A stretch of DNA of 64,000 nt from an uncultured Gemmatimonadales bacterium (GTDB taxonomy: Bacteria > Gemmatimonadota > Gemmatimonadetes > Gemmatimonadales > GWC2-71-9): the NCBI GenBank assembly GCA_963739455.1, contig CAVUAK010000003.1, forward strand, positions 192,001 to 256,000, read 5' to 3'. Below are positions 9,001 to 60,000 of this stretch, in pieces; within the stretch, counting starts at the first letter, position 1, and every line of letters starts with the position of its first letter. The position numbers were made by a program.

Positions 9001-12000
9001 GGGTGAGAAGCACTGACCTGATCCTGCAATATCCTGGCAGCGAGGGTGCCGCGCAGGTCAGGCGGCAAGAGCCTGATGACGTCCCTGTTGACGGTGCGGA
9101 ACTCATATTCCCGTCCGTCGGCACCAGCGAAGCGAAGCGACCGGGGCTGTATGTCTCCCGTACTGTCATGCTCGACCGGATGCAGGCCTCCGGCAAAAGT
9201 GTCAAGGTCGAGAACCTCGATCCGCATGGGAGTGGTCCAGAGATCCCGGTAGTTGCTCCCCAGCAGCCAGCGATGCAGCCAGCCGGCACCGTAGCGAGGG
9301 CCGGCAACCACCGTCGCGCTGTCTGAGACAAGAGGGGCCGGGCTTTGCGCGTACACGGGCTGCGGCGCCAGACCTTGGGTCAAGACGGCCATCAGCACGC
9401 TCAATAATGCAAAGCACCCCGGCGCCGGAGTGGCGACGGGGTGCTGCTGTTTCGACGTGGGGCTTCCAGGGATTAGAACCGCCGGAACCCACCCTGACCG
9501 GGGTTGTAAACCCGATTGATCGCGATGGCGCCGCCATGGTGCGGGGCGCAGTTGTCATCGGGCATGCGGACCATGACACCGCTGCCGCCATGTGCGATGG
9601 TCTGGATCCTCGGGGGGTCGCCGCTGCCCATGGCTACAGCCGGGATGCTCGCGACCGTCTGCCCGGGGGCGAGCGCGTGCCCACCCCCTGCATGTGATTC
9701 CGCGGGTGGCGCGGCCGGCGCGTCGGGAACGACTTCCGGTGCCGGCGCCGGAGCCAGGTCCGTCGCCACCGCAGTTTCTTCGGTGGCGTTCGGACGCGGT
9801 ACCGCTGTCTTCACCTCGGTGACCAGGTGAACCTTGCCGCGACCCTTGCTCGCGGGCTTGGTCATCGACTTGCGCTCCACCGCCGAAAGAACCAGTGGCT
9901 CCGCCGCCGGCTGCGACGCGCCCAGATTCAGGTCGCGACCCGCACCGGCGCCTGCCGAGTTGACCGCTTCACGGTCGTTGCTGCATGAAACGAGAAGCAG
10001 TGCTGCAATTGCGGCGGGAAATAGCTTGCGCATGGACCGACCCTCCCAACGAATCATTCGTACTAAGTGCATTAGCAAGAATGGGGACGTCTCGAGTCCC
10101 GCGCAAGCACACAGCCGCGCTACACCAGTCGCAAGTCAGCCTCACGCACCCGATCCGCCGCAACGTCCAAGTGGCCACACCAGTCGTCGATCGCCCGCAG
10201 CAACTCGTTCGCGACCAGGGTGAACTCCGTAGCCTTCTGGTGAAAGGTTGTGAGCCAGGCCAGGCGCTCGCACCGGGCCTCCACCACGTCGCCAGCGGCA
10301 CGCAGCGCGGACCAGGCCTCGGGTTCGAGCAGCGCGGCGAGCCCGCCGGCCGCCTCGCGTTCAGCCCGGAACCGCGGCAGGAACCGTTCCCTCAGGTACG
10401 TCACCGCACGCGCGCGATCCCACACTGTCGCCGACTCGGCGCAGGCGGGCCTGAAGGCGTGTCGGGTCTCGGCGAGCCACAGGGCATGGATGGCCGGCAT
10501 GGTGGTCATATAGCCGGCCCTCCACTCCCGATGTCACGCTGCCGCACGACGTGCCAGTTCGGACAGAACCCACAGATGCCCGTCGCTACAAAGACGAGCC
10601 CGAGCAGGGTGAGATAGCGCCACGGTACCGGCAGTGCCCCATAAAAACCGAGCAGCCCCACGCCGACGACCGTCCTGAAGATTCGTTCCAACCACCTCAT
10701 GTCCGGCGTCATATCTTGCCTCCACAGCCAATGCCCAGGACATGTTAGCACGGAGGGTATGAAGCACCGGTGGGGCCATCGTGAAGGACTATTGGGTGGA
10801 TCGCTCGCGACCGCGAGGGTCGTTGGTCTGGTGATCGCGCGCAGCTAGCGCGTCAACCGACAATGTCGACGTCGCCGGGGGCGACGACGACGTCCCCGTG
10901 GCCCTCCACCTCCACCGTGATGCGGTCGATCAGCGGATCGCTGCTGTGCCGCTGAATACGGCTGACCTCCACGATCGTGCCGGTCTTCCCGCTGACGCGG
11001 GGGACCCCCGTCTTCACGATCTTGACCGTGGTTCCCGGAATACAACGATCGATGTGCGCCATGGGCCCCTCGGATAGGAGGATCTGGGCGAAAACTCGTC
11101 TTGCGTACCTGTCAATTATATGATACATCTTTAGTGTCAAGTCAACCTGACACTAGGGGTAACGTGACGGCCTTTCCTCCCATCTCCAGCGATTCCCTGA
11201 TTTCCCCGGCACCGGTCATCCGCCCAAGGCGGCGCCGGAGGTCGGAGGCCATTCGCGGCCTGGTCCGCGAGCACCGGCTGCACCAATCGCAGCTGATTGC
11301 CCCGCTGTTCGTTTGTCACGGGCGCAACGTGCGGCGTGAGGTAGCCTCGATGCCGGGTGTCTTCCAGCTGTCGCTCGACGCGCTCGAGGCGGCGGCGGAC
11401 GGGCTGGTCGAGGCGGGAATTCAATCGGTCATCCTGTTCGGGCTGCCCGAGTTCAAGGACGACGTCGGGTCGGAAAACTTTGATCCAGAAGGGATCATCC
11501 CCCAGGCGCTGATGCGACTGAGACGCCGTCATCCCTCGCTCTGCCTCATCACCGACCTCTGTTGCTGCGAATACACCGACCACGGACACTGCGGCATCCT
11601 CCGGGGCGAGGAGGTCGACAACGACGCGACGCTCGAGATCCTGGGCCGCGCCGCTGTCGCGCACGCCGAGGCCGGTGCCGACATCGTGGCGCCGAGCGGC
11701 ATGATGGATGGGATGGTGCGCGCCATTCGCGCCGCGCTCGACGGAGCGGGACAGGCGGAGTGTGGCATCCTCAGCTATGCGGTGAAGTACGCCAGCGGCT
11801 TCTATGGACCATTCCGCGATGCCGCCGGCAGCACGCCCTCCTTCGGTGATCGCAAGCAGTACCAGATGGACCCTGCCAATGTGCGCGAGGCGATCCAGGA
11901 GGCACGGCTCGACGAAGCCGAGGGTGCCGACATGCTCATGGTGAAGCCGGCGCTTGCCTATCTCGACGTGCTCGCCACGGTGCGGCGCGAGACCACCCTT

Positions 12001-57000: not shown

Positions 57001-60000
57001 TGCCACCTGAGGCCGCCGAGGGCTGCCGGTTCTTCGGAACTGGCGTGAGCCTGGTGGTGCATCCCCGGAGTCCGCGTATCCCCACGGTGCACCTCAATGT
57101 CCGCTATTTCGAGCTCACCAACCCCGCTGGCGACGTAATCGATGCCTGGTTCGGGGGCGGGACCGACCTGACGCCGACGTACCCGACGCCAGACGACGCC
57201 CGGCACTTTCATCGGGTGCTGGCGGAGACGTGTGCCCGCCACGATGCGGGGTATTACCCCAGGTTCAAGGGGTGGTGCGACCGGTATTTCCGGAACACCC
57301 ATCGGGACAACGAGGCGCGTGGTGTGGGGGGAATCTTCTTTGACCACCTGCGAGTGGCCGAACACGGATTTGAGCCGCTGATGGCGTTCGCGGGTGCGGT
57401 GGGTCGGGTGCTGCCCGAGGCCTATGGTCCGATCGTGGACCGCTGGCGCGGAGCCCCCTACGGCGAGTCCGAGCGCCGGCTCCAGCTGTTCCGGCGCGGT
57501 CGCTATGTTGAATTCAACCTTTTGCACGACCGGGGCACTACTTTCGGTCTCCAGAGTGGAGCCCGGACTGAGAGCGTCCTCATGAGCCTCCCCCCACTGG
57601 CACGGTGGGACACCGATGCCGCGATGGAGTCCGATGCCCTGGCCCAGGCGCTCCGCGCCATGCTCGTCCCTCAAGATTGGCTTGCCCCGACCTGAATCTG
57701 CGTCATGTGTCTTGACATGACGGTGTCAACGCGGCATTACATACGAGCCTATGTCCGGTAACCATCCAAGCCCTGCCTTTGGCACGGCTGACCTTACCAA
57801 CTGCGATCGGGAACTCATTCAGCTCCCCGGCTCCGTTCAGCCGCACGGGGTCCTGCTGATCCTGCATCCTGAGCACCTGCGCGTCCTGCAGGCCTCCTCG
57901 AATGCCGAGGCGATCCTGGGTTCGTGGGGGGCATCGCCGCTGGGCAAGACCATCGATTCCCTGGACCCTGAGCTCGGTCTGCTGATCCGCCGCCTTCGGC
58001 ACAGCGACGAGCTGGCGGGGATCGTGCCTGCCGTGGCCCGTGCCGAGGATGAGAATGGGGTCCGGACGCTGGAGGCGATGATCCACCGGCTTCCCCGCGA
58101 GGGCATCGCCGTTGAGCTCGAGCCGGTGGCGCCCGACCCGGCAGGACGCTCGGCCGCTGAGGTGGCGCGGCAGGTATCCCAGATGCTCACCGATGGGATC
58201 GCTGCCATCAGCGTGGCGCCATCCCATGCGGCCCTGTATGGCGAGGTTGTGCGCGTCATGCGCGCCCTCTGCGGGTACGATCGCGTGATGGTGTACAAGT
58301 TTGATCCTGAGGGACACGGCGAAATCGTCGGCGAGGCGCGCCTCAACGACCTCGAGCCCTTCCTCGGCCTGCACTATCCCTCGAGCGACATTCCGCATCA
58401 GGCACGCGAGCTCTACCTGCGCAACCGGGTCCGCGTGCTGGTCGATGTCTCGTACCAGCCGGCGCAGCTCTTCCCGCGGCTCTCACCGATCACCGGAGCG
58501 GAAGTGGACATGTCGATGTCCTCGCTCCGCAGCATGTCGCCGCTGCACTTGCAATACCTCTCGAACATGGGTGTTCGCGCCACGCTGGTGACCTCGCTCG
58601 CCATCGGCGACCGGCTCTGGGGCCTGATTGCCTGTCACCACTATGCGCCCCGCTGGCTGCCGTACGAGGTGCGCGCCGCCGCCGGTATCCTGTCCGAGAT
58701 GGTGGCAGCGCGTCTTGCGGCTCTCGACAGCGTCGCGGCGACCGAGACGGAACACATCGTCCGCACCCTGGAGGACCAGGTGGTGGACTCGCTGGCTACC
58801 ACCGGCGACTGGCGCAATGCGCTGTTCGCCACGCCGCACCTGCTCCTGCAGACCGTGCGCGCGACCGGTGCTGCGCTGGTGCACGACGGGGCCCTCATCA
58901 CCACCGGCGAAGTGCCGTCGTCGGACGACATCCGGGCCGTGGTGCGCTGGCTGGAGGAGCAGCATCCCGGCGAGCCGGTGGTGCGAAGTGACGCGATGAG
59001 TCGCTCGGAGCCAACCCTCCGGCACATCGCAGGAGCGGCTGCCGGCGTGATGGCCATCGCGCTGTCGGCCAGGTCGCGAGACTACCTGCTCTGGTTCCGT
59101 CCGGAACAGCACCAGACGATCCGGTGGGCCGGTGACCCGCGCAAGCCGGTCGACCCCAATGACCCGAAGCAGCTGTCGCCGCGACGCTCCTTCGCGGTGT
59201 GGACCGAGGTGACGCGCGGCTCCTGCCGGCCGTGGACCGAGTCCGAAGAGGGCACGGCGCGCGCGATCCGCTCGTCGCTGGTGGACATGGTGCAGCAGGT
59301 GCAGGCGGTGCGGGTGCTGATCGCGCAGGAGCAGTTCTCGCGCATGATGCAGGTGGTGCAGCTCGCGTCCGAACCCACGCTCATCATGAGCCGCGCGGGC
59401 CAGGTCGTGCTGGTGAACGACGCCTTCCGGGCACTGCTGGGGCCGATGCCCACCGACCTGACGTCGGCCGAGGACCTGTCGCGGCTGCTGGGAGATGACG
59501 GCGCGGTGAACGCCATGCTCACGGCGGTGCGGGCGGAGCAGCGTCCGTGGGCCGGGGAGCTGCTCCTCACGACGCCGGACGGTGAGCGGGTGCCGCTCGC
59601 GGTGCGGGCTGATCCGGTGCCGGGCGATGACGGGATGGAACTGGGCTGCATCATCTTCGCGTCCGACGAGCGTCCGCGCCGGAAGGCGGAGGCGGCGCAG
59701 CAGCGCGTGCAGGACAGCCTGCTCGAGGCGCATCGTCGCTCGACCCGCTCCACACCCGTCGACGCGGACACGGCGCGCGGTTTCGGCGCGATGATGGATG
59801 CGATCCTGAGCACGGCGCGCCGTTCGTTCACGGACATCAGCGGCGAACCAGGAACGCACCCGCTGCCCTCGGCGCTGGCGAGCGTCGAGGACATGACGCG
59901 CCGCGCCGCCGCGATGGCGCTGCACCTCGAGGGGTATACGGCGGCGCGCCGCAAGCGGCAGTCCGTGGTCGTGAAGGATCCCGCTGGCGGGTCAGGGCAG

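Follow-up and report, generated by a model that had tools for sequence, protein, structure and literature searches.

A photosynthesis island carries the porphyrin pathway in a Gemmatimonadales genome without a detectable ferrochelatase

Layout of the photosynthesis island

The window analysed here is a 64-kb stretch of the 3.6-Mb genome of a Gemmatimonadales bacterium (G000), and feature coordinates are positions in it. Tandem PpsR-type boxes (TGT-N12-ACA, 7 bp spacing, 11110..11152) lie immediately 5' of hemB (porphobilinogen synthase, 11164..12189, + strand; PF00490 E 2e-141, PRK09283 over cut-off), which is followed on the same strand by hemL (glutamate-1-semialdehyde aminomutase, 12186..13507; PRK00062 over cut-off) and hemY (protoporphyrinogen oxidase, 13509..14907; TIGR00562 over cut-off). 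These three genes form one run with crtB, a crtF-like O-methyltransferase gene, bchI, bchD and puhE (14904..20275, + strand). A second tandem pair of boxes (20340 and 20366) stands before bchCXYZ (20340..25401, + strand), and the two pairs are the only ones in the whole genome; in the congener G006, both boxes of the pair before hemB carry one mismatch each.

The pufBALMC genes (26534..30651, + strand) encode a PufM with an OmpA domain at its C-terminal end and a PufC with four CxxCH motifs, so that the reaction centre itself would require haem. The minus strand carries bchFNBHLM, a 108-aa ORF (35136-35462), acsF, lhaA, a split puhA, puhB and puhC (30732..44389), and is followed by genes on the plus strand for a ppaA-like B12-binding regulator and PpsR (44226..46648). 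Beyond them lies a run with a PpsR-type box, bchG, a PucC-family gene, a bciB-like FrhB-family reductase gene, bchP, a polyprenyl synthase gene and tspO (46690..52724, + strand), the last frameshifted by one insertion near 52342. This run extends into hemA (52705-54015), hemC, hemD, hemE and hemF (together 52705..57695, + strand) with overlapping stop and start codons. A further PpsR-type box and a bacteriophytochrome gene (57724..60009, + strand) close the island, and in relatives this terminal gene is lost together with it. The presence of pufBALMC, bchFNBHLM and bchCXYZ, and of acsF upstream of lhaA, places the cluster among the Type-2 clusters of Gemmatimonadota, the acsF-lhaA order being that of subtype II (PMC9426454). 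Judging by the boxes, the two hem/bch runs are probably co-regulated by PpsR.

A complete, single-copy route to protoporphyrin IX

Together, hemA, L, B, C, D, E and F and protoporphyrinogen oxidase make up a complete C5, protoporphyrin-dependent route to protoporphyrin IX. As the genome-wide survey's note had claimed, hemBLY and hemACDEF occur once each in the genome (tblastn) and on both flanks of the photosynthesis cluster; other matches to hemL were aminotransferase paralogues at 30-36%. HemA keeps the TCNR motif expected in this enzyme.

Both hemL and hemY are frameshifted as assembled, because they carry single-base insertions relative to G006 (hemL at about 13186 and 13375, hemY at about 13731), whose intact HemL aligns to G000 across three frames at 77-88%. 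A fusion of the two genes as real biology can thus be discarded, and the suspicion in the note that an indel was responsible proved right. These frameshifts look like read errors, since gyrB, coxA and rsmI of G000 are affected too. In G006 (97% complete, 7 contigs), which itself has no hemH, both hemL and hemY are intact.

Searches for iron insertion and other haem routes

The claimed absence of ferrochelatase held in every search. Profile PF00762 had no match in G000, G006 or G008 (99% complete), and matched two of the 11 congeners (G002 and G005) and 8 of 14 controls. An unfiltered search of six frames of G000 with a custom 12-sequence ferrochelatase HMM gave a best E of 5.2, and tblastn on the same genome returned at best a 77-residue scrap (E 0.012). 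ChdC/HemQ (PF06778), CbiX and CbiK matched none of five genomes each, and the ChdC of a relative reached only E 0.27 on G000. The AhbA-D enzymes of the sirohaem route work downstream of uroporphyrinogen-III methyltransferase, for which TIGR01469 found no match in 18 hemH-less phototrophs. The note was mistaken in listing no TP_methylase: G000 has one, but it matches the rRNA methylase RsmI best and was rejected as a sign of the sirohaem route. The sole chelatase detected in G000 is BchH/I/D, with a single gene of the BchH/CobN type.

The hemH-hemA2 site known from G002 and G005 is empty in G000 and four further congeners. A response regulator gene lies 5' of hemH in G002 and G005, and also in three further genera; in G000 it overlaps the next gene by 1 base. 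Gene order at this site in G001, G003 and G008 is that of G000, without hemH, and in G006 just the HSP20 gene is left of the module. A separate, independent empty site was found in G165, with flanking genes 27 bp apart. The absence of hemH in G000 is not due to an assembly gap at its usual site. Among the 18 hemH-less phototrophs, however, the two flanks share a contig in only five (G000, G006, G008, G118 and G165).

Distribution, gain and loss

Comparisons covered 12 genomes of the genus (G000 and 11 congeners) and 401 of the order, 50 of them phototrophic. Within the genus, hemA, hemB, hemE and pufL/M matched the identical five genomes (the puf match of G005 is partial; its bch genes are present), which for these three hem genes bears out their restriction to phototrophs. 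Across the order, hemH is missing in 18 of the 50 phototrophs, spread over 8 genera. All 18 retain hemA and hemB, and 17 have a single hemA, as against 5 of the 32 hemH-bearing phototrophs. All 21 non-phototrophs that were at least 90% complete and chosen for absence of hemA and hemH also miss hemB. The sole one of these examined, G010, has oxidases and Ccm genes, so haem import would be needed in the lineage anyway.

Ferrochelatase is missing in 200 of the 401 genomes, and gyrB was detected in 29 of 30. The presence of hemH follows genus (24 of 25 genomes in g23, none of five in g17). All four single-contig phototroph genomes have hemH, so the hemH-less trait is seen in multi-contig assemblies only; several of the 18 consist of 200-400 contigs, and G313 has two hemA pieces.

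In two non-phototrophic congeners the bch and hem genes are gone jointly, with a lone ppsR remaining; in G001, G003 and G008 the island site is empty but for ppsR. Trees of the hem genes agree with bch trees and disagree with the gyrB tree. Since these are midpoint-rooted FastTree trees with local supports, and gyrB is partial for G000, G008, G400, G017 and G175, the donor and the order of events are suggestions. Joint deletion, tree topology and the PpsR-type boxes support the survey's view that the porphyrin genes move together with the island and work for bacteriochlorophyll synthesis. The whole pathway lies inside this type of island but not inside every one, as the island of G008 has no hemY and in g38 hemB is far from the cluster.

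Haem demand and candidate importers

Demand for haem in G000 is indicated by ccmABC, ccmEFH, caa3- and cbb3-type oxidases and haem oxygenase. The HmuY locus proposed for uptake (contig C1, 1244165-1248261) is real, with PF14064 over cut-off (positions 2-69 of 157), but is weak evidence of haem uptake. Its gene does not track the loss of hemH, being present in 11 of 18 hemH-less and 16 of 32 hemH-bearing phototrophs (Fisher p 0.56, with kin not independent; 80 genomes covered), with no copy detected in G006 or G032; the gene was rejected as a marker of import. The predicted model is poor (pLDDT 53), with HmuY proteins as top Foldseek rows at E 0.025 or worse. HmuY haemophores use a conserved His or Met as iron ligand; nine aligned HmuY-like sequences share no invariant His or Met and have six invariant Tyr. 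The gene adjoins one for an MntR-like regulator.

No importer was identified among the other candidates either. The haem receptor profile TIGR01785 had no match over cut-off in any of five genomes. The only FecCD operon (C1, 330271-335138), considered as HmuTUV, looks B12-type, its best matches being B12 transport, all below cut-off; in G010 a cobC-like gene lies alongside. A TonB receptor gene at 60596-62800 was rejected as a haem receptor, as it falls below the TIGR01785 cut-off and persists when the island is deleted; no counterpart was found in G005 or G010. A survey of haem auxotrophs from the environment reportedly detected no known receptor in 60% of them (PMC11139205).

Discussion

The branch point between haem and bacteriochlorophyll is treated as fixed in purple-type phototrophs. 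In G000 the haem branch appears absent and the bacteriochlorophyll branch fully supplied. Because the porphyrin genes lie only in the island and no iron-inserting enzyme is recognisable, I consider it likely, from gene content, that G000 makes its own bacteriochlorophyll and takes haem from its surroundings. The island would be a self-sufficient bacteriochlorophyll module, in which two runs shared with bch genes encode the C5-route steps between glutamyl-tRNA and protoporphyrin IX. A separate hemH-hemA2 module appears to have been lost from the host lineage, leaving the empty site, so that protoporphyrin IX could enter only Mg-chelatase. External haem would then serve the oxidases, c-type cytochromes, PufC and haem oxygenase, arriving by the same transporter as that presumably used by pathway-less sister species.

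The strongest alternative, though an unlikely one, is that these phototrophs make their own haem by a novel iron inserter unrelated to HemH, CbiX/SirB and CbiK, or by a side activity of another protein. All steps to protoporphyrin IX are present, haem demand is high, no importer emerged from the HmuY-like, TIGR01785 and FecCD searches, and profile searches are blind to a new fold. The conserved 108-aa island ORF even has conserved His and Cys; however, it also adjoins acsF in all four hemH-bearing single-contig genomes, and its small, beta-rich predicted model matched no chelatase (best Z 2.9). With only hypothetical clusters in the atlas, 132 unnamed homologues and no fold match, it was rejected as a substitute, although a chelatase might go without such matches, and the single BchH/CobN-type gene leaves no second chelatase of that kind. 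Import, in contrast, covers both groups with one assumption, because the sister species without a porphyrin pathway need it too.

It is improbable that hemH simply lies on DNA absent from these assemblies. G000 is frameshift-rich and 83.7% complete by markers, and the fragmented genomes and hemH-bearing single-contig phototrophs described above would fit such an artefact; yet empty hemH sites lie within long contigs, the size of G000 is in line with its 97-99% complete congeners, and the loss is both far commoner than that of gyrB and patterned by genus. Equally doubtful is a mixed supply, with non-enzymatic insertion of Fe(II) into the cell's own protoporphyrin IX and import as a top-up. Such insertion is reported under in vitro assay conditions, and the cbb3-type oxidase is consistent with low-oxygen life, but a Spirillum itersonii ferrochelatase mutant is reported to have been a haem auxotroph (PMC13564367), and non-enzymatic haem would cease on repression of the island. 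A decaying island, with hemL and hemY as true pseudogenes and no bacteriochlorophyll made, would agree with the insertions in hemL, hemY and tspO and with island deletion in three congeners, but is very improbable given the frameshifted gyrB, coxA and rsmI and the intact copies in G006, also without hemH.

If haem import is the right reading, a photosynthesis island can bring porphyrin supply to a host making no tetrapyrroles, which would remove a barrier to the horizontal spread of phototrophy, and adding hemin may be a simple cultivation fix for the large uncultured share of Gemmatimonadales without ferrochelatase. If it is wrong and a new chelatase is at work, a new ferrochelatase class would be common to roughly one in three phototrophic Gemmatimonadales. 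Both the placement of hem genes next to the cluster and haem auxotrophy in environmental bacteria have been described before. No report of a ferrochelatase-less chlorophototroph, or of hem-in-island combined with haem auxotrophy, was found in the main texts of open-licence literature; the genome tables of PMC11139205, PMC10581226 and Kim et al. 2021 (PNAS) could list these lineages. In contrast to the 200 genomes without ferrochelatase, a survey of the phylum reports enzymes of haem synthesis from every environment (PMC10581226).

Among known systems, Gemmatimonas phototrophica AP64 likewise has hem genes next to its cluster, where hemEFG is reported to be repressed along with the cluster after illumination (PMC11406998); hemH lies elsewhere in AP64, whereas in G000 all eight hem genes sit on the flanks of the island and no hemH was detected. 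The split H subunit recurs in G. groenlandica (PMC12817894). Rhodobacter sphaeroides shares TGT-N12-ACA boxes ahead of bchCXYZ and hem genes, in its case hemE, and its hemC and hemE respond with the PpsR regulon (PMC4344238, PMC3401432), but its hem genes are not part of the cluster, and through the ferrochelatase branch point they supply haem as well as bacteriochlorophyll. A lipoprotein whose N-terminal part is HmuY-like, adjoining a TonB-dependent receptor, recalls HmuY/HmuR of Porphyromonas gingivalis (PDB 3h8t, 6ewm); the G000 protein, however, is double the length, matches only over residues 36-108 and has no conserved His/Met, and its locus has an MntR-like regulator and no HmuS-type gene. 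Environmental haem auxotrophs such as Planktophila and Rhodoluna similarly combine haem proteins with an incomplete pathway (PMC12381374), often with an unrecognised importer, but they miss most of the pathway (less than 50% complete by the survey definition; PMC11139205), whereas G000 misses the last step only. A pathway-completeness screen would call G000 a prototroph because all steps but the last are present, and such screens would overlook auxotrophs of this kind.

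Haem pathway genes and ferrochelatase

In the window, profile scans of 58 ORFs showed a complete type-2 photosynthesis cluster with hemB-hemL-hemY to its left, and hemA-hemC-hemD-hemE-hemF and a bacteriophytochrome gene to its right. The genome-wide survey's note had placed single-copy hem genes on both flanks, and the source genome (G000) does hold one copy of each. The suspected indel behind the apparent hemL-hemY fusion was confirmed as single-base insertions relative to the congener G006; since gyrB, coxA and rsmI are likewise broken in this assembly, read error is the likely cause. 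The 17 HemA-related loci are all assigned by title to Gemmatimonadales, Gemmatimonadaceae or Gemmatimonadetes.

No ferrochelatase match to PF00762 was found in G000 (8 of 14 controls were positive), and my own HMM, derived from 12 ORFs of relatives and run unfiltered on six frames, gave a best E-value of 5.2. Synteny is the stronger evidence of absence. The phototrophic congeners G002 and G005 share the order kinase, response regulator, hemH (ferrochelatase) and second hemA (hemA2), followed in G002 only by HSP20, ArsR and oxidoreductase genes, and kinase-regulator-hemH recurs in G017, G033 and G034 from other genera. In G000, the end of the regulator gene and the beginning of the oxidoreductase gene overlap within a contig of 2.6 Mb, leaving the hemH site empty; G001, G003 and G008 have the same hemH-less order, G006 retains HSP20 alone, and G010 is rearranged. 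From gene order, this reads as a deletion of the hemH-hemA2 module in the G000 lineage. In another family, the flanks of the G102 hemH-hemA2 pair lie 27 bp apart in G165, G118 carries other genes there, and G405 and G336 showed no hemH beside the single flank seen. An empty site speaks for loss at its own position only, and genome-wide absence rests on the searches, which bear out the earlier claim that no ferrochelatase is detectable in G000.

The hemA genes adjacent to hemH form a fast-evolving clade (L034:11258-12472 and L045:4554-5690, on relatives' DNA), with TCHR replacing TCNR in G057 and G102. G055 carries hemH and lacks hemA, hemE and hemB, which suggests protoporphyrin salvage.

BchH was found in 48 of 401 order genomes, and adding G002 and G005 gave a set of 50 phototrophs. 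All 50 have hemA; ferrochelatase was present in 32 and absent from 18, the latter spread over 8 genera and 2 families; a single hemA was found in 17 of the 18 hemH-less genomes versus 5 of the 32 others. Order-wide, 201 of 401 genomes carry ferrochelatase. Counting against the generality of the loss, ferrochelatase is present in all four phototroph genomes that consist of one contig, a pattern compatible with a bias of culturing against auxotrophs or with some loss in assembly. Unpublished genomes entered tallies only (G025 the genus and control searches; G095, G105, G214, G263, G355 and G412 the 401-genome count).

Haem supply

ChdC, CbiX and CbiK were each found in none of five genomes. Uroporphyrinogen-III methyltransferase turned up in 3 of the 45 genomes searched, none of them among the 18 hemH-less phototrophs. 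The single TP_methylase of G000, considered as a sirohaem-route enzyme, is RsmI-like instead. A complete operon that includes ChdC and ferrochelatase does occur in some non-phototrophic relatives, so the searches detect such genes where present. Haem formation by a new chelatase in the hemH-less phototrophs appears improbable.

Haem proteins are plentiful in G000, which encodes ccmABC, ccmEFH, caa3- and cbb3-type oxidases, haem oxygenase and multihaem cytochromes (one ORF with 18 motifs, plus neighbours). hemB, too, is missing from all 21 near-complete non-phototrophs selected for having neither hemA nor hemH, and G010, the one examined, has oxidases and Ccm genes. Haem import is therefore required in the lineage with or without the island, and on that ground auxotrophy is the most economical account of the phototrophs: those without hemH are probably haem auxotrophs.

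At the HmuY-TonB uptake locus proposed in the survey's note lies an HmuY-like gene facing an MntR-like regulator, with an Nramp gene nearby. Its product matches P. gingivalis HmuY at residues 36-108 only, a conserved His or Met is absent among aligned relatives, and the gene is not associated with the lack of hemH (11 of 18 hemH-less versus 16 of 32 hemH-bearing phototrophs; among non-phototrophs, 5 of 19 without the pathway and 2 of 11 with hemH). The only FecCD operon of G000 resembles B12 uptake.

Joint movement and probable co-regulation of hem and bch genes

Matches to hemA, hemE, hemB and puf fell in the same 5 of 12 genus genomes. In the non-phototrophs G001 and G003, the genes flanking the island lie together with ppsR (84% identical) as the sole gene between them, and the hemB promoter, with decayed boxes, is kept before the relic ppsR in G003 and G008; hemB-to-ppaA and bchG-to-phytochrome were therefore deleted jointly. 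The relic ppsR copies (L098:7081-8577, L099:6553-8013, L100:5212-6354) comprise near full-length genes in the two non-phototrophs and a truncated one in G008.

Besides the relic site, G008 carries another island, whose proteins are more distant (41-85% identity to those of the window). Its chromosomal site, shared with G002 and G032, is unoccupied in G000. The gyrB tree placed G008 with G000, G006, G001 and G003 (support 0.992), and the bchP+bciB+bchG (0.996) and hemA+E+F+C (0.995) trees placed it with G002/G005. In both the bch and hem trees, G000 clustered with L009, its closest relative, and with G194, G400, L013, L015 and L018 (1.0); relic ppsR copies joined G000 (1.0), and the island ppsR of G008 joined G005 (0.985). 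The hem and bch genes moved jointly, and gene content and the empty hemH site are as firm. Two island types occupy two chromosomal sites within one genus (L074, L078 and L079 of G008 versus the window); the common ancestor may have had both, or G008 may have regained one.

Island-linked HemA sequences group in a single clade that excludes the copies beside hemH or in ChdC operons, and island-linked HemE likewise forms one, with one non-phototroph copy (G057) nested within. The genes around that hemE (L048:6249-7313) are those found beside the cluster of G102, and it is likely a relic of cluster loss. The earlier claim that the porphyrin pathway travels with the island is thus supported by the shared five genomes of the genus, the joint deletion and the concordant trees, and meets exceptions in the G008-type island, with no hemY on its contig, and in another genus (g38), where only hemA-E-F-Y adjoin the cluster and hemB lies elsewhere, also in one non-phototroph.

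TGT-N12-ACA sites number 279 in G000, with only two tandem pairs, 5' of hemB and of bchC. The bchG-to-hemF run is headed by a single box, found at the same place in G008 and G005; G008 has none 5' of hemB. Such boxes are described as PpsR sites in R. sphaeroides (PMC4344238), and the hem and bch runs of G000 are probably co-regulated. For G. phototrophica, PMC11406998 describes a cluster that is hardly oxygen-responsive and is repressed together with hemEFG in light.

Other features of the island

PufM (27974-29395) has a C-terminal OmpA (peptidoglycan-binding) domain fused on; G006 has the same 477-codon frame, and the G008 and G002 frames are ~390 codons long. Immediately upstream of acsF, a conserved 108-aa protein (35136-35462) with conserved His and Cys has 132 unnamed homologues and a confident structure model, which gave no match in a fold search; it is possibly an AcsF partner. 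Short imperfect repeats of GAGTCGT / ACGACTC units (22382-22470) lie near the bchX-bchY junction and are missing from G006. Small unassigned ORFs at the two island borders (10853-11140 and 60158-60592) remain where the island is deleted. Haem oxygenase follows phytochrome in related islands (L010:17316-18011) and lies elsewhere in G000 (C1:921790-922701).

Comparison with known systems

Searches of the open-licence literature found neither a ferrochelatase-less bacteriochlorophyll producer nor haem auxotrophy in Gemmatimonadales. The comparison drew on PMC11406998, PMC11651109, PMC12381374, PMC5972617, PMC13564367, PMC8529089, PMC7844134, PMC10581226, PMC11139205, PMC12817894, PMC9426454, PMC4344238 and PMC3401432. 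A hem operon beside a photosynthesis cluster and haem auxotrophy of free-living bacteria have each already been described.
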